From the IMG/VR virus record IMGVR_UViG_3300037325_000203: a stretch of 64,000 nucleotides of DNA. The stretch is one strand, 5' to 3'. Under the pieces are notes generated by a model. It was not told the DNA's origin, searched no databases, and was given only the letters and a program-made list of their open reading frames with translations. Positions 6,175 through 64,000 of the stretch are shown piece by piece. Both the position numbers and the translations under genes were made by a program. The stretch is from a virus. The number at the start of each line of letters is the position of its first letter. Position 1 is the stretch's first letter.

Positions 6175-6241
6175 ATTGTTCCTATGCTTCTGTGTTATTT
6201 ATCAGAAACGAGCATAGGATACCACTATAACGCGACCCAAT

Positions 6242-23471: not shown

Positions 23472-23518
23472 GTTTATCTTCTTAAATGTATATTTATTAT
23501 TTTTAGATAAATATACTT

Positions 23519-31489: not shown

Positions 31490-31520
31490 TAGTTTCCTGT
31501 ATTTCTACAAAATATTTATC

Positions 31521-40311: not shown

Positions 40312-40353
40312 TAATTGGATAAATAATAGAAATCGGAAAAGGATTACCAAAAC

Positions 40354-42381
40354 ATGAAATTAAATCAATTTAGTCAAGTGGTTGCAGAAAACAATGTATA
40401 TGCCGGGATCAATGACACTCTTGACGAGCATACGTCTCAGGTGCCGGAGCCGGGGGATACCATCCGTACAAAGAAGGTACGTATGGAAGGAAGAGTAGAA
40501 CGTCTCGGAACAAATCGCAACGGGCATGAGGAAGTATTTTTCCGACTAGCTGACGGGAGGTTGATGAGATCTTCACTGAGTAATGTCACTGTTATTGAAA
40601 AAATTACAGACGAAGAAATAGGCGAATCTATTAGGTTTGGAAATAATACTCCAGATGTTGACCATATGAACGGGCCTGTGTACAGAGGAGGAGATGCTCC
40701 GCCGATGACTAGGCAACCGCAGCAAAGTACTAATAGAAAGCAGTTTAGTGATTTTGAGAAGTGGAACTCGTATGCGCAACATATCAACAGCGAAGTCTAT
40801 GATGATAATAGTGATATTATCGGTGACAGTTATTCCAGTACATATAGATCACCCGACAACAAGATGTATGCAGAATGGAACAAAGAAAGAAAAATCGGAT
40901 TTGTAACCTTGCCAACCAACGAAGGAGTTACGGGTGGCATTGCAGGTGCAATGGCCGGGGCAGTTGTAAAAAAATCGCCCGGCGGAGCAATGTCCGGATA
41001 CAAAATCGGCAGTAGCATCCAAGACGCAGTGACAAAGGAAGGCTCTGTGGGCGGCATAAATAGATCGGCACCATCAACCGATGTCAGTTACGAAAAAGTA
41101 CTTGATGAAGTTCAGCAAAAATGGCTCGACGAGCAAATGTTATCAGAACTAAGTGTTAATAAAATGAGAGACTTCCAACAAAAAGTAAAGTCACCGGATA
41201 GATTTCGTACTGCGAGTATGAGTCAATTGAGTCGAGATGTCGAAGGAAATGCCCGCGCTTCGCGTAAAATCGCAACAAAAACAGGTGACAGACGTCGAGA
41301 CCCACCTAGAGTAGCAGTTGACGAAGCCGACATTGACTTTTCCCAAATTCTGCAACAGCAACAAAAAGAATATCAAGCAACCAAGAAGATAGCTACTGTG
41401 GATATAGCATATAACGGTTGGACTATTAGGTATCGACCAGCAGCTAAGTCCGGCGAGAAGGTTCGGTGGCAGGCGATGGATGGAAAGGATACCATCAAGG
41501 GTAAAGGCGAGGCCATGACTGATAAAGAAGCTGTGGCTGCTGCAGAGGAATATATTAAAAAGGGTGGTGGAGCAAAAAAAGAATCCAATACAAGCGTTAC
41601 AATCGACTTTAACGTAAACTTTACTAAAGAATTCGGTGATGAGTTTTATTCAAACATCATGGATGATGATGGCGTACCGGCTCTGCTGATATCATACGAG
41701 GATATGAGTGGGATGAAGCGTGCTCATACAAGAAACCAAAAGCATAAGATGACTTCCACTACCACAAGACTTACATCTATACCAATGAGTGCAACGGAAG
41801 CAAACACAGCAGGTCTTAGCCCCAACGGTCGATACTTGCTGGGATCTAAGGAAGACCTCGGTAACGGAATTTCCAAATTTCCTCTGATCTACCAAAGCAC
41901 AGTGCAGGGTAAAGGTGATATGATGAGATTGGGCCGCCCAGGGCTGACAGTTGCACATAACAGAGAGGTAACCGAAGCTTGTTGGAAAGACTATAAGCAA
42001 CTTGGTATGAAAAAGAAAGGCGGTAAGTCCGTGCCTAACTGTGTTCCTAAAACAGACGAAGCATACGAAGGTCCGTGGCAAGGGGATAGTACACAGCTTG
42101 CCAAATCTCCCAAATCCACTATGATGGGAAGTAAAGATGTCCCGTTTGATCAATTGGTGAAAGACACCATTAAGACTCATGGCCTGAAGTGGGCATTCGA
42201 TTATTATGTAAAGAAAAATGGATTATCTCCTAGGCAGTTTCAGATATTTGCTGGTCTGACCACAAAAAGGAAGAACATGCCAGAGGCAGCAAGTGCACAG
42301 ACTGCTGCCGCAACTCCTGCAAGGAGCAAAGACTCTCAGTGGAGGAAAATGGTGGGGAGATTTACAGAAGAAGGATTTTAA
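40354..42381 (+). CDS. Large modular putative internal head protein
   Basis: GATAAATA upstream; short modules following Glu, including ACWKDYKQLGMKKKGGKSVPNCVP. Confidence 0.65.
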   Translation: MKLNQFSQVVAENNVYAGINDTLDEHTSQVPEPGDTIRTKKVRMEGRVERLGTNRNGHEEVFFRLADGRLMRSSLSNVTVIEKITDEEIGESIRFGNNTPDVDHMNGPVYRGGDAPPMTRQPQQSTNRKQFSDFEKWNSYAQHINSEVYDDNSDIIGDSYSSTYRSPDNKMYAEWNKERKIGFVTLPTNEGVTGGIAGAMAGAVVKKSPGGAMSGYKIGSSIQDAVTKEGSVGGINRSAPSTDVSYEKVLDEVQQKWLDEQMLSELSVNKMRDFQQKVKSPDRFRTASMSQLSRDVEGNARASRKIATKTGDRRRDPPRVAVDEADIDFSQILQQQQKEYQATKKIATVDIAYNGWTIRYRPAAKSGEKVRWQAMDGKDTIKGKGEAMTDKEAVAAAEEYIKKGGGAKKESNTSVTIDFNVNFTKEFGDEFYSNIMDDDGVPALLISYEDMSGMKRAHTRNQKHKMTSTTTRLTSIPMSATEANTAGLSPNGRYLLGSKEDLGNGISKFPLIYQSTVQGKGDMMRLGRPGLTVAHNREVTEACWKDYKQLGMKKKGGKSVPNCVPKTDEAYEGPWQGDSTQLAKSPKSTMMGSKDVPFDQLVKDTIKTHGLKWAFDYYVKKNGLSPRQFQIFAGLTTKRKNMPEAASAQTAAATPARSKDSQWRKMVGRFTEEGF

Positions 42382-42432: not shown

Positions 42433-43821
42433 TCAACGCACAGGCATGTTGGATCGTTCACGAATCTCTTCAAATGTAGTTTCATTTACAACTCTGCCGT
42501 CGACGTAGCGAGTAATCAGGTAATCTACTACATCTTTACCGTATGCAAGTCGATTGGTAACAAATTTTCCACTGTCGTCAATGTTGAGCATGAGCCTTCC
42601 TTTCTTGCTTCTCTTCATTTTAGAAGTAATAGGGTCCTTATACACGTCTACCCATTCCCCGTTAATGAATGCTGCTGAACACTTCATTGCAAACTCCAGC
42701 GTGTCGCGGTTTACTATTTGCAGCAAGGCGCCGCCTTGACCAAACGCCACGTTATCGGCACTATATCCTGCAACTTGCATGCAAAACAAGATAGAGTGGA
42801 TCATCGCATGGTCAATACCGTCCCCTTGGATGATTCGGACGTTGTTTAGTACTCTAAACCCCTTACTGTTAACTACATGTCCGAAGTGCTTATCCAAAAT
42901 ACGCAGACATTCGACTACCACCTGACTGGGATTTCCGCTGTCGGGTCGGATCACCACAACTGCGCCGCTGTCAATGACTTGCTGTTTCAGTTCGCCACCC
43001 CAAATCTTATCACATGCATTGAAAATGTCATAACTGTCACTAACAAACGCCACTGGCTGTCCCGGCTTGCCGTATAGCCTCAGCATGTTAGAGTACGACG
43101 CTGCTTCGTTTTCCCTGCCCCAACTGGTGACAGTGCTATGTTCCATTGCAGGAATGCTAAACCCGGACACCGGTGCATCATAGTATTCCATTGCAGCCAT
43201 TACTCCAGACACTGTGTCTGTGCCCATAAAGTTTACCAAGTGGGCCATACCACCGAGTGCAGCACTTTCCATACTAGATACGCCGCGAGCGCCAAAGTCA
43301 TGTAATTTGAAGTTGATGTCCCCGGAAGTACCTGTCTTCTCCAACGCGTCGAGGATCATATCCTTGCTGATTCGACTGTTAGTTGCTACGGTTGTCGGGT
43401 ACCAGATTGCTCGAAGCAGTGCAGTTTCTAAGAAACTAGTGAGCCAGTAGCACCTAGGATCGGTATTAACTACAGACACAAGGACGTTCTTTAGATACAT
43501 AACGCTGCCTTCGTCTACCGACTTAATCTCCACCGGCAGATACCCACCCAGGGTGTTTACGATGTACATCCAGTCATCATAGTTAAATGGCTCACCATGA
43601 AGTGCCATAACGTCGCGTGCTTGCTCGACCATTGCGCGTGTAACGGGAGTAGTCATGTACTCGCGGATGAATGCTTGCACACCCATGAATACTAACTTGT
43701 TGTATTTTCCACCGCGTGATTCAATATATGAATATACGTACTTAGTGCCTTCTGGATATTGTTTCCATTGGCTGTACTTGTAACTGTCTGAATTTAATAC
43801 AATGTTTTTTGCGAATTTCAT
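42433..43821 (-). CDS. nadV: Nicotinamide phosphoribosyltransferase
   Basis: DSYK, WYPTTVAT, LHDFGARG, EHS, SDSYD, IRPDSG, IQGDG, KSA/KKG region. Confidence 0.96.
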   Translation of the reverse strand: MKFAKNIVLNSDSYKYSQWKQYPEGTKYVYSYIESRGGKYNKLVFMGVQAFIREYMTTPVTRAMVEQARDVMALHGEPFNYDDWMYIVNTLGGYLPVEIKSVDEGSVMYLKNVLVSVVNTDPRCYWLTSFLETALLRAIWYPTTVATNSRISKDMILDALEKTGTSGDINFKLHDFGARGVSSMESAALGGMAHLVNFMGTDTVSGVMAAMEYYDAPVSGFSIPAMEHSTVTSWGRENEAASYSNMLRLYGKPGQPVAFVSDSYDIFNACDKIWGGELKQQVIDSGAVVVIRPDSGNPSQVVVECLRILDKHFGHVVNSKGFRVLNNVRIIQGDGIDHAMIHSILFCMQVAGYSADNVAFGQGGALLQIVNRDTLEFAMKCSAAFINGEWVDVYKDPITSKMKRSKKGRLMLNIDDSGKFVTNRLAYGKDVVDYLITRYVDGRVVNETTFEEIRERSNMPVR

Positions 43822-43866
43822 AATGATAATCTCCTTATCGTTAATTGCCCAACTCTCTGTTAGGAC
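43822..43866 (-). promoter_or_regulatory. Two-hairpin leader of nadV
   Basis: CCUAAC-AGAGA-GUUGGG then GAUAA-GGAGA-UUAUC enclosing the SD. Confidence 0.55.
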
Positions 43867-43871
43867 TTCCT

Positions 43872-44102
43872 CTATATTAATACTGACTTCAGTATTAATA
43901 CAACCTTTTCCTCATCGGATATATGCCATGATGTGCATATACCCATGCGATTTTTTAAATCGTGTGCTATATTACCGGAAATAGAATAGATCTTGTCTGC
44001 ATTGGAAGCTCGGTTCCGCTTTGCGTGGACATAAGGCCAACAAAACTCCAGTCCTGTGATATTTTCTCTACAAAGCAATGCCGGGGCCATCCCGCTATTC
44101 AC
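43872..44102 (-). CDS. Hypothetical protein
   Basis: Short ORF, start uncertain. Confidence 0.35.
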   Translation of the reverse strand: MNSGMAPALLCRENITGLEFCWPYVHAKRNRASNADKIYSISGNIAHDLKNRMGICTSWHISDEEKVVLILKSVLI

Positions 44103-44128
44103 AACACTTGTGGAGTATTCATAGATAA

Positions 44129-44449
44129 TTATTTTGACTTAATTGCTGCCAATTCATCCGGAGTAAGTCTTGCAAGGACTGCTACTTTAAGTACCCTTAG
44201 TCTTTCTTTCTCTCGGTCCGCGGCTTCGTATTTGGCAATTCTTGCTTTTTCTCTCTTGTCTGCCGCCTTGTGATTGGACCACCACTCATGGATTTCTGGA
44301 TCTTTTAGTAACAAAAATTCTGCACCGTCGTTCGTATCCTCGATATGCTGCAAGGCTTTGCATGCAATTCTGGAAAGCATGTTATTTAAATTCCGCAAGG
44401 TAGTGGGCAGGTCACTATTGTTATCTTCTTCGTAACTACGACATGGCAT
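44129..44449 (-). CDS. Hypothetical phage protein
   Basis: MPC start, EWW..HK..D, LTPDEL; strong SD. Confidence 0.65.
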   Translation of the reverse strand: MPCRSYEEDNNSDLPTTLRNLNNMLSRIACKALQHIEDTNDGAEFLLLKDPEIHEWWSNHKAADKREKARIAKYEAADREKERLRVLKVAVLARLTPDELAAIKSK

Positions 44450-44483
44450 GTTAATCTCCTTAAATTAGCCGATCTACGGTTTA

Positions 44484-44723
44484 TTAATTACTATCTCTGA
44501 TTGGGACACTTTTGCTAATTTGGCAGCAGTGCGCCAATGAAAATGCAATAGCATCCTGTTCTATTTCAAATTTTAAATGGGAGTGGACAAGATCGGTATC
44601 TCTATCGTTCCATCCGCCACTAAAATAGTCCACTTCTATTGCCCCACTCTGTAGGAGCCATTTGCCCAGCTCAGCATGATCTTTTCGCCCATTCAGCCGA
44701 GGTATTTTGACATAATAACTCAT
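44484..44723 (-). CDS. Small protein of the paralogous family
   Basis: Likely start MSYYVK; KWL...LKFEIEQDAIAFSL. Confidence 0.55.
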   Translation of the reverse strand: MSYYVKIPRLNGRKDHAELGKWLLQSGAIEVDYFSGGWNDRDTDLVHSHLKFEIEQDAIAFSLAHCCQISKSVPIRDSN

Positions 44724-44733
44724 TTCTGATCCT

Positions 44734-45777
44734 TTATTTACGGCTGCGCGCCACCATTGTTTCAATGATATGTGCATGATCGCCGTAGAGCTGTTCGGCA
44801 ATCTCTGATACTTCAGCTAATGTAAACCACTTTGCAATTTTTGCATCATCACTACCTTTAACCCTTGGTAATGTACCATCACCGCCGTCTAGTTCGATTA
44901 GATATGCATGAGTAATTACTCGGCCTCGGAGATCTCGATCCGGATGATCAAACTTCGTATCGTAAGTAATTGCCTTACGCAATACAATCTCAGGAACCTT
45001 AATTTTAGTTTCTTCACGAAGTTCTCTGATAACACCGTCTTCTAGAGTCTCTCTGGGATTAAGGAAGCCTCCGGGAAGTGCCCATAGGCCCCGTCCCGGA
45101 GAGTGCCCTCGTTGGATGAGCAGGATATGCCCGCCTTGAACCACAACTGCATCTACAGTATGCATGATACTAGGAAATTTCTTAGGATCATACCCCTTAT
45201 AGAAATTATATTCCTCAATTAGGTCTTTAAACCCAGCGTCAGTGGTGAATTTGGTCAAACAGTCGAATACTGTCGCCGGAACTGCTCCGCGAATAAAATC
45301 TAAGTGTCCTTCGAACAGGAGTTCTCGAATTTTTGTGGCATCGATAGGCACAGATCCTACTTCGACAAATCCGCCCACATCAATAAAGTCCCATGCAGGG
45401 AATGCGTGATTGTACCAGCTAGAGTCATCCTTATCGTACCCCATGATACAAATCTGGCTATCACTTACGTCTAAACTATCACCTTTTACCACCCGCTGAA
45501 CTTCTCGAATCCAGTTATTGTTGCTGTATTTGTGATCCCTAAGCGGATAGGTTTCGAAGTTTCTGAAGGGAGACTCACGCAATAGTGTGTGAGTAATAAT
45601 TGTACTGCGCTGATCGTAGGTCAGAGGATTCTTAGGTGTGGATGGCTGGAAGGAACTTCCAATTAAAAATAACACACGATCGGCAATGCCGAATGCATGC
45701 TTTAAGTTACGGAGATGTCCGTTGTGAAATGGCTCGAATCTGCCGATAAGTACGGCTACTTTATATTTCTTTGTCAT
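44734..45777 (-). CDS. nadM: Bifunctional NMN adenylyltransferase/ADP-ribose pyrophosphatase (NadM-Nudix)
   Basis: [13 protein letters not shown], Nudix box ALPGGF...RELREET, SDDA, DH. Confidence 0.96.
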
Positions 45778-45822
45778 ATTTGGCTCCCAAATAAGGTTGA
45801 TTAGTAGAAGTCTGTCTCTACT
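45778..45822 (-). promoter_or_regulatory. Two-hairpin leader of nadM
   Basis: AGUAGAG-ACAGA-C(U)UCUACU then UAUUUGG-GAG-CCAAAUA sequestering the SD. Confidence 0.55.
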
Positions 45823-45872
45823 TTGTATTTAGCATTTACTTTAACATTTACCAACAATGTTAGTCAACATTG

Positions 45873-46166
45873 TCAACAGTCGCCCTTGAGTCTGTTAACT
45901 ATTTTCTGTGCATCTTTGTCTATCATATCTTTATATGCTCTCCATGCACTGATATTGGCTCTGCATAGGTAAACAATCACCATAGTAACCACTACAAGGA
46001 TCGCAAGTAAACCACACAAAACAACCATGTACACTACACCTACAAAACCACCTAATACCGCCGAAACAGTTATACAGAGTGTAAGTAGAATAAGTTCCAA
46101 CGTCATCTGGGCATCTGATCCCATATGCTTCCACCAAAATGGTATAAATTTAGATATACTTTTCAT
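45873..46166 (-). CDS. Two-TM membrane protein
   Basis: Hydrophobic segments; WW near the N-terminus and LKG at the C-terminus, as in its neighbour. Confidence 0.6.
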   Translation of the reverse strand: MKSISKFIPFWWKHMGSDAQMTLELILLTLCITVSAVLGGFVGVVYMVVLCGLLAILVVVTMVIVYLCRANISAWRAYKDMIDKDAQKIVNRLKGDC

Positions 46167-46453: not shown

Positions 46454-46775
46454 CTTCTTCCCCGGGTGTACATTCTATGATCTCGATGAAATCATCTTCC
46501 AATAACAGCACTAGTTCAGAACTTTCGGTCGATTTCGGAAATGGAAGCGGTATCGACCCTTCCTTATGTTTTTCGTACTTGTATTTAGGAACAATGTTAG
46601 CCGAGACAAATTTCCCGGTGGACTCGGCTAACATTAATTCCGTGTAAGCACTGTTCGGCACTTCGGCATAGTCGTAAGTTGCTCCGCCCTTAAAAGTAAT
46701 ACTCAAGACCTGAGTAGAAACATCATATGCAGCCGACTTTATAGAAGAACTACGTTCAAACATGATTTTTGTCAT
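46446..46775 (-). CDS. KTSC-domain protein
   Basis: SSSIKSAAYD...L.ITFKGG.YDY..VP...L..AESTGKF. Confidence 0.9.
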   Translation of the reverse strand: MTKIMFERSSSIKSAAYDVSTQVLSITFKGGATYDYAEVPNSAYTELMLAESTGKFVSANIVPKYKYEKHKEGSIPLPFPKSTESSELVLLLEDDFIEIIECTPGEEDV

Positions 46776-47533
46776 TTAAACTCCATAAATTTGTCTAATT
46801 TAAACACAGATTTGCTGTGCAAAACAACCGCACCAGACAAAAATCCGCCCTTGCCGCAGCCCGTGTCCAAAAAGACTGTCTTTCCACCACTCGAGCTCTC
46901 GACTATCATAGGTTCTGTTATAGAAACATTGTTAATGGGTTTTCTGTCATGCCCTACAATGATAGTTTTACCTGACGGAACTTCTTCGATCCAGTTGTAT
47001 AACCTGATTGGATACCCATCTTCGTCTAGTTCGTTCACAGTCTCGCCGTATAAGAATCTAGAAGTTGCTTTTCCACCGATGTTAATCGGGTCTGCCCACA
47101 AACATGGATGAGATGCGGCGTGGACCAATCTTATGTCACCGAACTTGTGAAATGCCCCGGCCAACATACTATCTTCTACTACAGAAGTGTACATGTCTAA
47201 AAATTTCTGTCGTCTGTCTGGGCCCACTAACTCTAAAGTCCGGCGGTTGTCGTCAGAACATGTAACAGTTCTGCCTTTGTGCAACCGCACAAACTTACTA
47301 TCATGGTTGCCCACTGTCATTCCAGCATGGCCAGAGTCCATTCGTTCATACATGGCTTCTATTACTTCGTATGGGCTATCTCCACGGTCGACTAAATCGC
47401 CTAAGGACATAAAAAAGAAATTTTCACTGATTGCAAAATCCAATGCCATACTGAAAGATCGGAAGTCGGAATGGACATCTCCCACTACCAACATACCGTC
47501 ATAGCTACTTACATGGTCTTCTAAACTAAACAT
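46772..47533 (-). CDS. Calcineurin-like metallophosphoesterase (PrpE/Pnkp-phosphatase-like)
   Basis: GDVH, GDLVDRG, GNHD, VHA, GH, DTGC. Confidence 0.92.
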   Translation of the reverse strand: MFSLEDHVSSYDGMLVVGDVHSDFRSFSMALDFAISENFFFMSLGDLVDRGDSPYEVIEAMYERMDSGHAGMTVGNHDSKFVRLHKGRTVTCSDDNRRTLELVGPDRRQKFLDMYTSVVEDSMLAGAFHKFGDIRLVHAASHPCLWADPINIGGKATSRFLYGETVNELDEDGYPIRLYNWIEEVPSGKTIIVGHDRKPINNVSITEPMIVESSSGGKTVFLDTGCGKGGFLSGAVVLHSKSVFKLDKFMEFK

Positions 47534-48871: not shown

Positions 48872-50650
48872 TTATGTTGTTTTAGATTTATTCCAAATAT
48901 AGGCGTTTGTACCGCAGTCCCAAACCCTATCAAACCCATTGGCTTGCATGTTCTGCCATTCGGTAAGCAACGGGTCATATGTAGATGATACGTCGACAAG
49001 CTTATGTTTTTGATATTTTACACGATTCTCGAATTTTATGTAATCTTTCGTATACAAATAGGACGGCGGGCTAACATGAGAAAAATTAAATCCTATTAAT
49101 TCATACATGTTGCCGGTATTTCTCATCTTATCCGAGTAAGATATAACACTCAAAGGATTGCAGCGTTTAACAAAATTCTTAAATAGTCTAGATGCGCCGC
49201 CGACTACATTTGTAAATTGCAACGAACAGTACCTTAACAACTCGTAATCCACATTCTTGTTAAATCTAGATTTACCAAATGTCATTATTGCCGTCAGTAC
49301 ATTGTCATTGTATAGCCCTAAATTTATGGCAGACGGGCAGTTCCCCTGGATATGATTATTATTTAAAAATTCTGCTGTATTAAACTTCGACACCACAGAT
49401 AGCTCGCACTTTCGAGCATAAATTCGCAAATTTAAGCCTAGTCTCGAAGATATTCGAGACTTGATCAGCTCTTGTTTTTTTTTCCACTCATGCTCCCATA
49501 TGTGAATTAGCTCTATGCCGGCATCGGTGCATGCTTTAGTTTTTGTTAAGTGATAATTTTTGTCTTTTCCATTTAGTTCGCTATGCCAATATGACCCGTT
49601 ACACTCGACAGCAATTTTTAAGTCCGGGAGATAGATATCCAACTCCCCCGGACTAATAACTGTTTTCGTATTTAATACAATGTCGCAATCTGTAATGCCA
49701 GTAATGTAATGTTTTACACTTTGTTCAAATAACGAATTGCTGTGTTTTTTGTAAATTAATCCGTGTTTAGTAAAATATTGAGATACTGTCCTGACTGTTA
49801 CACTAAGTTCGTCTGCGATAGATGATATGCTTTTTGTGGAATTTTCGTTAGTTAACCACGTTGCAGATTGTAATTTATCAAGTGTACCGGGCTGCAATGA
49901 TATTTGCCCTGGATTCATCACCGTGTGCGTATTATATAATGTTGCCTGCATTTTACTTAACACAGCAGGCGACGATGCAGGCGATGGTCCGTCGTATCTG
50001 GATATATTTGTATTCCTTATTTGCTCTCTAATTGACGAGTCGTGCATAACGTTATCGACACCGTACTTATTTAAAATTGTCTGTTTTGATTTATTTGTGA
50101 TTTCGGTATTATGAAATACGCAACTGTTGCCGTACCGTTCATAATTTGTAGCACGAATCTTTTCTAATAACTCGGGAGAGTGCACAGCATGTTCTACGCC
50201 GTACCTGTCGAGCATTGTTTTTTTTACTTTAGCTGCTACTGCCGTTGATTTTCTGGGATTATCGACTCCATACTTAATAAGGCAGGTCTCGCGGGTAGCA
50301 GATCTGACAGATGTATCCATACGGGCGCATTTAACCGAGCAAAATCGGTTATAGCAGGACGTTTGGGATTTCCATTTAGTATTTTTACCACATGCACATG
50401 TCGGTATAGCCGATATCCCTTGCTTTATGTGCTGAAATGCTACACCTAATTTGTCTATCCCTAGTTCCCTGGCATATTCTAGGACTTCTTTGTATAACCG
50501 GACATTTGATCTAAGTAATGGCACGTTTAAAGCACCATTACTTTTCACATGTGATGGTATCAATGAATTATATAATTCAGAAATTGTCCCATCCATCGAC
50601 CGCCTCGCTCCTAGAATATTCTGTAACTTTAGTTTCGAAAAAGTTTTCAC
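48872..50650 (-). mobile_element. Free-standing Hef-like homing endonuclease gene downstream of nrdB (alternative start 50596)
   Basis: KYGVDN-type repeats, ELDIYLP..KIAVECNGSYWH, IHIWE, GGASRL, VWDCG. Confidence 0.8.
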
Positions 50651-52236: not shown

Positions 52237-52280
52237 ATTACCCCGCGCATTATAAACTATTTATCTATGTGCGGGATAAT
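52237..52280 (-). promoter_or_regulatory. RBS-sequestering hairpin with a late-promoter motif in its loop
   Basis: AUUAUCCCGCACAU / AUGCGCGGGGUAAU, 13 of 14 paired; GATAAATA at 52258-52265; ATG follows directly. Confidence 0.8.
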
Positions 52281-54042: not shown

Positions 54043-56214
54043 TCAGTTATTTATCATATTTATGTCGACTATTTCCATCTCTTCCGTCATATTTTCCACT
54101 TTAATCCATTGGTTGCCGTCATTTGTTTTAACCAATAGCATATGATTGGGTGTGAATGAATATGTAATCCCGTCCTCGAATGTAATATCTGTGGTCTCTT
54201 GTATTCCGTTCCACCAAATTCTTTCAACAAATTCAGTGTCGCCTTTCGGTGTGTTAACTTCGACAGGTAATTTTAATTCTATCCAATGCTGTGGCAACTC
54301 TATCAACTCGTGTATCTTCAAACCATCATTCTCTAATATCTGTCTAATGGTTGTTAGTCCAGCAATAGTCATTACCTTGTCGTCTAACGAATGGCAATTT
54401 GGAGCAGGGCTTGTTAATTGACTATTACGCATACCATGTACATCTATCTCGGACTGTAATGCTTTCCAGTCATACTTACCGGAAGCATGTTCTGCAAACT
54501 GGCTAATTCGATTTCCGTTTTTCCACTCAGAAGATTCGAACGCACCAAACGACCCGAATCTCTTAGATAACTCTATACTGGATAACACTGCATGATATTC
54601 CACGCACTCTGCAATTTGCCTAATATAGTCTAGGTCTCTGAAATTCATGTACTCCCTGGCAAGGTGGTCGTGCAAACCTTGCAAGCCAATGCCAATTGTT
54701 CTATATCTGTTGTTATGAGCGTGAGTTACAAGATCAGGTGCGCTAGTCAGGCTGATGCCATAATCCAATATACGTGTTGTTAATTCAGAAACTTTACCTA
54801 ATTCTTTAAAATCTTTAATGTTGCCTAATACAATAGAAGCTAGATTACAAACATGGCCTAACTCGTCCGGTTTAACATTAGAAAAGGACTCTGTGCATAA
54901 ATTTACACAAGGAATACCGATGTGACCGTTAGTATCTCCCTTATTCGGATTATACTCGTTGATGGTGTCAGTGAATGCAATGTATGGTAGACCAGTTTCG
55001 AACTGTATACGCATTATAATTTTCATCAGATCACGGGCATTATCGAATTTTCGAGTTACGATTAGTTTACCTTCCTTGGCAGCTGATTCAATTTTAAGGT
55101 ATGCTTCTGTAAATGCAGAACCATACATTCCGCGAACATCAATACCTAATTTTTTCTTAACCTCATACGGGCAAAAGGTATGCCATTCTCCCCTGTTAAG
55201 ATCTCTTTCCATGAAAATGTCTGGAATTGTAACCTGGGGAAACACGTCGTATGCCTTCATTCTCGGGTCACCGTGTTCTGTTTGCATATCCAAGAAGTCA
55301 AGCACATCATTATGCCAGATAGGAAGTGCTATAGTTCCTGCACCAGCCCGCTTACCACCCTGATTAACTGCAACTAACGTATCATTGAGAATTTTGACCC
55401 ACTGAACAACTGTTCCTGCTGCATTCTGATAACCATTTACATCTGCGCCCTTGGCTCGGAGATATCCTAGGAATAAACCTATGCCGCCCCCGTTCTTAGA
55501 AATTAATGCAACACGCTTGATATTATCAAAAATACTGTCTATATCGTCTTCTATAGCAATAATAAAACAAGATGCAACGTTTCCTCCCTTTCTAAGATTA
55601 GATAGGAAAGGTGTTGCTAAAGAAATCTTACGCAGAGAAAGCGCATTATATACTTCCTTTACGAATTTTAACCTAGTCTCTACTGGTTCTAATTGACCGA
55701 ATCGCATTGCATTGACCATATGCATATGTTGATTTAGTTCATGCTTACCTAAATATTTTTTCTTTGCAGTAATGAGACTTGCATAACTATGATCCAAGTC
55801 TCGATTCATTTTAATCGACGAACTTAGCTCCTCTATATCTACGTCTGTATAGAACTCTAAAAGTTCCGATGAGTAATGTCTATTCTTAACATTATAATGA
55901 ACCACTTCTTTAAAGGACTTTCCGCGAAGTGTAAAGTTTGCCCATTCATCCATCGCTAGTGCGCGGCCAGCGACATTCACCCAGTCCGGTGCCGAAGGCG
56001 AAGCAAGCTGTATTGCGTGCTGAATTACATTCAGTTGAATATCACGCGTCTTTATACCTGGCTTTAGAAACTGATCAAACTTGGATTCAAGTTCTAAAGG
56101 ATTAACATCCTGTCCTTCTGCTGCCATTTGTATAGATTTCTTAATCTTAGAAACATCATAAGGCTCTTTCGTACCGTCACGTTTCTCTACCATTATTTCT
56201 CTAACTGTTGCCAT
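54043..56214 (-). CDS. nrdA: NrdA N-terminal part (ATP cone and catalytic core) fused to the split-intein N fragment (117 aa from 54396)
   Basis: VEKRDG cone, SCF, NLCTE, VCNLASI, SPAPN followed by CHSLDD; intein block B FTPNH. Confidence 0.95.
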   Translation of the reverse strand: MATVREIMVEKRDGTKEPYDVSKIKKSIQMAAEGQDVNPLELESKFDQFLKPGIKTRDIQLNVIQHAIQLASPSAPDWVNVAGRALAMDEWANFTLRGKSFKEVVHYNVKNRHYSSELLEFYTDVDIEELSSSIKMNRDLDHSYASLITAKKKYLGKHELNQHMHMVNAMRFGQLEPVETRLKFVKEVYNALSLRKISLATPFLSNLRKGGNVASCFIIAIEDDIDSIFDNIKRVALISKNGGGIGLFLGYLRAKGADVNGYQNAAGTVVQWVKILNDTLVAVNQGGKRAGAGTIALPIWHNDVLDFLDMQTEHGDPRMKAYDVFPQVTIPDIFMERDLNRGEWHTFCPYEVKKKLGIDVRGMYGSAFTEAYLKIESAAKEGKLIVTRKFDNARDLMKIIMRIQFETGLPYIAFTDTINEYNPNKGDTNGHIGIPCVNLCTESFSNVKPDELGHVCNLASIVLGNIKDFKELGKVSELTTRILDYGISLTSAPDLVTHAHNNRYRTIGIGLQGLHDHLAREYMNFRDLDYIRQIAECVEYHAVLSSIELSKRFGSFGAFESSEWKNGNRISQFAEHASGKYDWKALQSEIDVHGMRNSQLTSPAPNCHSLDDKVMTIAGLTTIRQILENDGLKIHELIELPQHWIELKLPVEVNTPKGDTEFVERIWWNGIQETTDITFEDGITYSFTPNHMLLVKTNDGNQWIKVENMTEEMEIVDINMINN

Positions 56215-60538: not shown

Positions 60539-60586
60539 ATACCCTTTCCTGTTAAGTTTTATTTCTACTATTTATCTTTACAGAGC

Positions 60587-63772: not shown

Positions 63773-64000
63773 GATAAAACTCCTTAAATTTTAATAGGTT
63801 AATCCTATTTATGCATTTATTTATCTTTTATATAAGATATTTACGGATCTCCGATGGATAATAGAAGTTTTGTCCGGCTTTCCAATCGGTAAAGTTATGT
63901 GCCATTTGTCGACAAATACGTTCTTGCTCAACTAAGCCGCAATATCGTTTTACAGCGCTCATTATAGTCTCTAAGCTGAACAAGTCGTTGACTGTTGCTC

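Follow-up and report, generated by a model that had tools for sequence, protein, structure and literature searches.

Introduction

Two described riboswitch classes, NAD+-I (the nadA motif) and NAD+-II (the pnuC motif), lie in the leaders of genes related to nicotinamide adenine dinucleotide (NAD), and in NAD+-II the Shine-Dalgarno (SD) sequence belongs to the switch. Here we describe another leader of NAD-related genes, different from both classes in architecture and in gene association, that stands before nadV and nadM on a 64,000-nucleotide stretch of viral DNA (IMG/VR record IMGVR_UViG_3300037325_000203; hereafter the window, meaning the whole stretch). In each of its two copies the leader consists of a hairpin with an A-N-A-G-A pentaloop (hairpin 1), a linker free of G and a second hairpin that carries the SD in its loop beside the AUG. 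The products of nadV and nadM make up the NARP2 pathway, so named by Osterman and colleagues, through which phages rebuild NAD+ after an NAD-depleting defence; it consumes phosphoribosyl pyrophosphate (PRPP), overproduces NAD+ and, in the form of the KVP40 operon, was toxic on cloning in E. coli (bioRxiv 10.1101/2024.02.11.579819). That a leader of their own, conserved across many genomes, precedes just these two genes suggests that NARP2 is under a control not yet described.

By analogy, the described systems closest to this leader in working principle are the dual-site operators of the CsrA type and the operators read by enzymes, while on the riboswitch side the closest architecture is that of guanidine-II. 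A CsrA dimer bridges two sites and thereby blocks the ribosome, and CsrA/RsmA operators share with our leader the combination of an upstream site in a hairpin loop and, a few tens of nucleotides away, a site over an SD that is itself in a hairpin loop. A few nadV leaders do read ACA-UGGA-G in hairpin 1, as a CsrA site might, but the GGA that is invariant in CsrA/RsmA sites occurs in the hairpin 1 loop of only 5 of the 85 distinct leaders that we collected from all sources and in neither window copy (AGAGA, ACAGA), and we rejected this assignment; the leader differs from CsrA operators also in being found in cyanophages. Leader hairpins that are read by enzymes include the gene 43 operator of T4 and RB69 and the thrS operator of E. 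coli. In the MS2 coat-protein operator and in lambda boxB, the latter a pentaloop, a protein reads a few loop bases together with the stem geometry; the A-N-N-G-A pattern of our wider family fits neither boxB (G-A-A-R-A) nor the MS2 loop and, unlike those hairpins, the leader serves metabolic genes and is not restricted to one phage group.

PyrR of Bacillus, a homologue of phosphoribosyltransferases, offers a further parallel as an enzyme that binds a leader hairpin in the mRNA of its own pathway, with the binding-loop consensus ARUCCAGAGAGGYU (review, PMC7430163). The nadV hairpin of the window (AGUCC...AGAGA...GGCA) comes near the two halves of this consensus, but they lie 4 bp apart in nadV and are missing in nadM, and the Rfam PyrR model gave no match, such that we did not retain a PyrR site. 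The PyrR-like flanks are specific to the window's clade, being absent from nadM and from distant leaders, and PyrR acts by transcription attenuation whereas in our leader the target would be the SD. Guanidine-II (mini-ykkC) is proof that a riboswitch can consist of two small stem-loops on a linker that varies (PMC5558903), and like our leader it has conserved loops on both stem-loops, a variable linker and a position immediately before the start of the gene it regulates. It was rejected as an identity since its identical ACGR tetraloops kiss through C-G, whereas the leader has differing, purine-rich pentaloops without complementarity.

Results and discussion

Two leaders with a common plan

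A first-pass annotation had reported a pentaloop hairpin followed by an SD hairpin before each of the two genes, and its coordinates and structures were borne out for both (Table 1). The two leaders are closely matched in spacing, with 32 and 33 nt from the end of the hairpin 1 loop to the start codon, and in both of them the pair of hairpins is the minimum-free-energy fold. The nadV copy has the C-G closing pair typical of its clade and the nadM copy is closed by G-C; the nadM linker also lacks G, the bases after its hairpin 1 reading UAAUCAAC. For nadM hairpin 1 the energy model favors a stem of 7 bp under a 6-nt loop with a G-U closing pair, and the G-ACAGA-C pentaloop requires one bulged U. 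We take the pentaloop as the conserved form because the orthologues L003 and L073, in which the extra U is missing, have perfect stems with AGAGA or ACAGA pentaloops. The same annotation had noticed no such arrangement before the genes in between; of these, orf106 (start 44449) has an SD-in-loop hairpin but no A-N-N-G-A hairpin.

Folding energies of the leaders are unremarkable against shuffled sequences (z -1.53 for nadV and -2.33 for nadM), with the whole 62-nt leaders folding at -9 to -11 kcal/mol. Because this energy signal is weak and SD-in-loop hairpins are common in this A+T-rich phage, the case for the element rests on comparison with other genomes.

Orthologous leaders preserve the structure

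To evaluate conservation, we aligned 17 orthologous nadV leaders without reference to structure, which revealed pairing in 95% of cells, four pairs that change on both sides, and a score that none of the shuffles matched; sliding the partner columns reduced pairing to 29-42%. Within nadV hairpin 1, 99% of cells pair and both sides change in 3 of the 7 pairs. The relatives keep AAGUCC, a stem, A-N-N-G-A, a stem and GGCA, with variation at the inner stem pairs such that one position shows U-A, C-G, A-U and U-G and the next A-U, G-U, G-C and C-G, and they keep the SD hairpin on different stems. The G-U pairs of nadV hairpin 1 occur on the sense strand only, and because such frequent G-U pairs would be mismatches in DNA or on the opposite strand, the structure lies in the sense RNA. 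A blind pattern scan of IMG/VR, in which flanks and loop were fixed and the inner stem bases were free, returned 43 sites, with all three free pairs formed in 24 of them; 22 of these 24 sit 45-76 nt 5' of a nadV open reading frame (ORF), as against none of the 19 unpaired sites.

The nadM leaders of the same clade (14 distinct) carry ACAGA, AGAGA, AAAGA or AACGA loops on stems of little common sequence, with one deviant (L011) that has GUAGA and interrupted pairing. A bulge and differing stem lengths made the MAFFT alignment of nadM hairpin 1 unusable for pair counts, and we counted only the SD helix, in which 96% of cells pair across the 14 orthologues and two pairs are compensatory. In more distant phages, with 36-42% protein identity, the nadM leaders have 6-9-bp hairpins with AUAGA, AGAGA or AGUGA loops. 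Together, the covarying stems, the fixed loop pattern and the fixed spacing substantiate the proposal of a conserved RNA-level element common to the nadV and nadM leaders, and the suggested examination of homologous leaders found the motif kept in orthologues through compensatory and G-U changes.

Specificity for nadV and nadM

We next evaluated how often such leaders precede other genes, using the window and two complete relatives (818 kb) and asking which SD-preceded genes have an A-N-N-G-A hairpin of at least 5 bp located 8-75 nt upstream. This strict descriptor was matched by 5 of the 6 nadV and nadM leaders and by 7 of 586 other genes (Fisher p 8e-9), and by 6 of 6 when one bulge was allowed; the concern that the motif might be equally common before unrelated genes was thus checked, and it is rare there. 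Neither component is a mark by itself. SD-in-loop hairpins alone precede 8 of 56 SD-preceded genes of the phage against 6.2 with shuffled flanks, a frequency near chance, and bare A-N-N-G-A hairpins show no genome-wide enrichment (119 versus about 100 in shuffles), such that the context is the signal.

Covariance models gave a second view of specificity. Model R1, trained on the window's nadV clade, matches nadV leaders only and is too sequence-specific to judge the nadM motif, whereas model R2 was built from 30 leaders that all lie outside the window's clade, and R3 was iterated from R2 hits. Within the window, the nadV leader is the top match to R2 (22.3 bits, E 7e-4) and to R3 (37.9 bits), and the nadV leaders of the relatives top their genomes with R2, the next match being at 14 bits. 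Over the 818 kb, R1 and R2 gave no further convincing match, and other genes of these phages lack the element. Judged from sequence, the window's nadV leader is a family member by model, and its nadM leader is a member by its orthologues and anatomy rather than by model score. Phages and bacteria alike have the arrangement almost exclusively before these two genes.

The element also stands apart from catalogued RNAs. Searches with cmscan against Rfam 15 at E up to 10 gave no match on the leaders themselves and none of relevance in the 5 kb around them, both NAD+ riboswitch classes, PyrR and mini-ykkC included, and six other loci gave none at E up to 1. The literature searches likewise found no description of the leader. 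These results agree with the first-pass view that the element is unlike the NAD+-I and NAD+-II riboswitches, the Rfam 15 models of both classes being without a match, and that it is undescribed, as far as the Rfam 15 families and the literature searched extend.

Occurrence in other phages and in bacteria

Uncultured jumbo phages have the two-hairpin leader before nadV and nadM. Distant nadV leaders (44-57% identity) and those of cultured phages follow the same plan, mostly with G[AUAGA]C, and the cultured carriers include Synechococcus phage B23, Xanthomonas phage LucasX and Phaeobacter phage MD18. The element is not confined to phages, as its presentation as a device of phage NAD metabolism had implied: a search of bacterial genomes with an alignment of NadV yielded 80 loci, and nadM-nadV operons of Lysobacter, Xanthomonas and Stenotrophomonas carry the leader. 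In these operons it lies between the two cistrons, nadM and nadV, and some bacteria have it ahead of nadM as well. In the nadM-nadV spacer of many Lysobacteraceae and other proteobacteria, a G+C-rich hairpin of 8-9 bp with an AUAGA or ACAGA loop is followed by a linker rich in pyrimidines and by an SD hairpin. Variovorax and other Burkholderiales (L131, L132, L160, L157, L166, L172) show the same two-hairpin plan, their loop reading G[GUUGA]C or G[CUGA..]C.

The descriptor used to collect the 85 leaders (an A-N-N-G-A loop on a stem of 5 bp or more) itself demands pairing and loop, so the figures that follow describe the family and do not test membership. Hairpin 1, for which we define the family by stems of 5-10 bp, has a median stem of 7 bp, with A at loop position 3 in 72 of 85 leaders and either G-C (62 leaders) or C-G (20 leaders) as the main closing pairs. 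Among clades the loop varies, G[AYAGA]C being commonest, C[ANNGA]G found in nadV of the window's clade and G[GUUGA]C in Variovorax-like bacteria. From loop end to start codon the median is 35 nt (24-48 nt in our definition of the family), only 8% of the first ten linker bases are G, and an SD-in-loop hairpin of at least 4 bp is present in 81 of 85 leaders versus 32 with shuffled flanks. Two phage loci with NadV at 57% identity (L014:909-960 and L016:714-765) hold a third copy, at 27-28 bits with R2, before a 155-aa ORF whose stop codon is 1 nt from the nadM start and which leads the nadM operon there.

Promoters upstream of the leaders

A recognizable strong sigma-70-like promoter is present in 21 leaders, and in 20 of these a distance of 3-17 nt separates the end of the -10 box from hairpin 1. 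In the window, the candidate before nadV (Table 1) is a weak one, from which the RNA would begin about 1-3 nt ahead of hairpin 1, and it overlaps a 12-14-bp palindrome within the end of orf72; relatives have strong TTGACA-N17-TAnAcT boxes at the equivalent site. Because the regional promoter scan was at chance overall (10 found versus 9.5 expected), the placement of promoters rests on the relatives. On this footing, hairpin 1 in this phage is probably no more than about 10 nt away from the 5' end of either transcript, a position from which it may also protect the end of the mRNA.

Before nadM, a CTAAATAC box stands 2-3 nt ahead of hairpin 1 and is conserved in the nadM leaders of the clade, its TAAAT core being invariant or nearly so across the 14 of them. 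The window has 17 copies of a related word, GATAAATA, where 5.4 +/- 2.0 are expected, always on the same strand as the adjacent gene and mostly 10-40 nt ahead of a start codon. We take it to resemble the late promoters of T4-type phages, and it is probably a phage promoter of this type.

Two further repeats overlap these promoter regions. At the 3' end of orf72, positions 43877-43898 (minus strand) form a palindrome over the putative nadV promoter, perfect over 9 bp and 12-14 bp long when the flanks are counted; the 87-nt nadV upstream region that includes it folds at z -4.3, and the palindrome could be an operator, a terminator of the upstream genes or a processing site. Upstream of nadM, an 8-10-bp inverted repeat at 45845-45870 (minus strand) spans the stop codon of ORF 46166..45873 and the nadM -35 box.

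What reads the leader

From sequence comparison we favor, tentatively and with somewhat less than even confidence, a translational operator that a protein recognizes, for which NadM-Nudix is the best candidate. Under this proposal, a trans-acting protein would recognize A1, G4, A5 and the closing pair of hairpin 1 and would also hold the neighboring SD hairpin, such that the ribosome is kept off. NadV and NadM, which consume PRPP and ATP and are able to overproduce NAD+, would then be made only up to a set level, with NadM-Nudix acting as an autogenous and pathway-wide repressor. A protein is preferred to a ligand because the conserved core is very small and the loop differs by clade, as is typical of hairpins that proteins read. 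The hairpin 1 loop also stays free of pairing. If an enzyme of the NadM-Nudix type does read the leader, it would join the metabolic enzymes that repress translation as a new example.

The distribution of the leader bears on this proposal. Across 151 genomes of one order, in counts that ignore relatedness, the leader is present in all 22 genomes with NadM-Nudix and in 1 of 129 without it. By enzyme content, it is found in 20 of 20 genomes with NadM and NadV (18 by model, 2 by eye), before nadM in both genomes with NadM only (G055 and G083) and in 1 of 4 genomes with NadV only (G089), while the 125 genomes with neither enzyme gave two weak R2 matches (G040, G041), about the chance expectation, that stand before unrelated genes or none. 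In five cases a leader-bearing nadV has no nadM beside it, and each time NadM is encoded elsewhere on the same genome or contig; for five leaderless nadV loci the genome lacks NadM-Nudix in every case. These phyletic data favor NadM-Nudix as the reader, with one exception, and fit a metabolite equally, with none. The three small ORFs between nadM and nadV of the window were rejected as a general reader, as no such ORFs are predicted between nadM and nadV in leader-bearing bacteria.

Several observations weigh against a NadM-read operator common to both genes. Neither enzyme accompanies every leader: G089 has a perfect leader before nadV (C10:829561-829611) and no NadM-Nudix at E 0.001, and G055 (C14:19493-19541) and G083 (C229:5081-5129) have the leader before nadM and no NadV. 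The link to NadM may be no more than a trace of the shared ancestry of nadM-nadV operons, and no RNA-binding domain is known in NadV or NadM (Pfam). The model evidence for the window's nadM copy is also thin, R2 not finding it and R3 placing it second in the window without significance (13.4 bits, E 0.86). In KVP40, nadV and natV (L231, L232) have a GGGAGCC SD hairpin like that of the window's nadM, but the pentaloop hairpin was not found upstream, and the phage in which NARP2 was studied is thus no model system for hairpin 1. The genomes with one enzyme only (G089, G055 and G083) are natural test cases for the reader, and the element, about 50 nt long, is present in the tractable phages LucasX, MD18 and B23 and in the chromosomes of Lysobacter enzymogenes, Stenotrophomonas and Xanthomonas translucens.

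A small two-hairpin riboswitch, in which the loops, or loop and linker, bind a metabolite of the NAD pathway (NAD+, nicotinamide mononucleotide (NMN), ADP-ribose, nicotinamide or PRPP) and alter SD accessibility, is a doubtful but serious alternative with a plan like that of guanidine-II, itself the precedent for two small stem-loops on a variable linker. It alone accommodates without exception the leaders with nadM alone, with nadV alone and with both, and the hosts of the element (phages of cyanobacteria and of alpha-, beta- and gamma-proteobacteria, and bacteria) share no obvious protein beyond the two enzymes; both leader loops are moreover pentaloops with A-G at positions 3-4. Set against this are the conservation of only about five loop and closing positions, their variation by clade (AYAGA, ANNGA, GUUGA), which would be unusual in a ligand pocket, and the absence of any match to an Rfam riboswitch model. 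Complementarity to the downstream leader is lower for the hairpin 1 loop than for permuted loops (1.33 versus 1.72 +/- 0.12), on which grounds a pseudoknot or loop-tail pairing was rejected, and no covariation was seen between the two loops when position 2 of hairpin 1 was compared with the base that follows the SD core. That the leader is a new and very small riboswitch class for NAD+, NMN or ADP-ribose, through which the NAD-rebuilding enzymes would be translated only while NAD is being destroyed, for example by anti-phage defense, we regard as unlikely; were a metabolite the reader, this would be a third and unusually small NAD-related riboswitch class and would place a counter-defense pathway under direct metabolite control.

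Equally improbable in our estimation is a constitutive structural leader without a dedicated reader, in which hairpin 1 shields the mRNA from 5'-end-dependent decay, the G-poor linker is a ribosome standby site and a weak SD hairpin sets moderate translation. The short distance from the -10 box to hairpin 1, seen likewise in the window, the scarcity of G in the linker and the weakness of the SD hairpins would all suit such a leader, yet a stabilizer needs only a stem, whereas A1, G4 and A5 recur and the closing pair is near-fixed within clades; the bacterial element sits between nadM and nadV rather than at a mapped 5' end, and the remaining genes of these phages are without it. A DNA-level operator (an inverted repeat for a dimeric transcription factor), an intrinsic terminator or attenuator, or chance resemblance we consider highly improbable. 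Hairpin 1 is an inverted repeat beside promoter-like boxes, but many stems need G-U pairs that are mismatched in DNA and in the antisense strand, and loop and orientation always follow the sense strand. In some Lysobacteraceae hairpin 1 is G+C-rich and followed by a few U, but the window copies, like most others, lack a U tract; neither copy of hairpin 1 in the window was called by a terminator scan, the bases that follow being CAAUUAAC and UAAUCAAC, and we rejected an intrinsic terminator here. Chance is excluded by the counts of the pattern scan (22/24 versus 0/19) and of the descriptor (5/6 versus 7/586).

Genomic setting

The window is a portion of a large-phage genome with 41% G+C and nearly every gene on the minus strand. 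A megablast search of 3.8 kb against 50,697 phage records found no cultured close relative. Relatives of its NadV in IMG/VR reach 73-84% identity, two of them being complete genomes of 369 and 385 kb. Translation of nadM-Nudix shows both the HxGH motif and the Nudix box intact, and a family search with the three small ORFs between nadM and nadV gave no matches.

Table 1. Positions in the window of the leaders, their genes and associated features (position 1 is the first letter of the window).
Feature	Position	Strand	Remarks
nadV (nicotinamide phosphoribosyltransferase, 462 aa)	42433..43821	-	Pfam NAMPT_N (3.6e-32), NAPRTase (2.9e-56)
nadV AUG	43821..43819	-	
nadV SD hairpin	43825..43839	-	5-bp stem; loop contains GGAGA; 3 nt ahead of AUG
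nadV linker	43840..43846	-	with C43847 reads CAAUUAAC; eight bases, G-free
nadV hairpin 1	43847..43866	-	6-bp stem CCUAAC/GUUGGG; AGAGA loop 43858..43854; outer G-C pair over bulged U
nadV promoter candidate	43874..43903	-	weak sigma-70-like TTGTAT, 18 nt, TAATAT; from sequence, below promoter-scan threshold
Three small ORFs separating nadM from nadV (79, 106, 72 aa)	43872..44723	-	syntenic in relatives
nadM-Nudix (bifunctional NMN adenylyltransferase / ADP-ribose pyrophosphatase, 347 aa)	44734..45777	-	Pfam CTP_transf_like, NUDIX
nadM SD hairpin	45777..45793	-	7-bp stem around the GAG of the SD; last base is the A of AUG (45777)
nadM hairpin 1	45803..45822	-	stem 6-7 bp; ACAGA loop 45815..45811 given bulged U45808
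nadM promoter region	45825..45867	-	sigma-70-like TTGACT, 18 nt, TG-n-TAAAGT (45867..45838); CTAAATAC box 45832..45825
GATAAATA, example sites	2606-2613, 6196-6203, 31513-31520, 52258-52265, 60569-60576, 63818-63825	-	
GATAAATA, example sites	23506-23513, 40318-40325	+	
14-bp hairpin between the end of nadV and the end of convergent ORF 40354..42381	42391..42421		fold z -5.8 and -6.9 on the two strands; likely two-way terminator

The 14-bp hairpin that faces the end of nadV also accounts for weak Rfam matches to mir-1252 and ctRNA. Near the NAD genes, all on the minus strand, lie a phosphoesterase or RNA-ligase-associated phosphatase-like ORF (46772-47533), a homing-endonuclease-like ORF (48872-50596; PHROG 3339, 6e-134) and the large subunit of ribonucleotide reductase (54043-56214).

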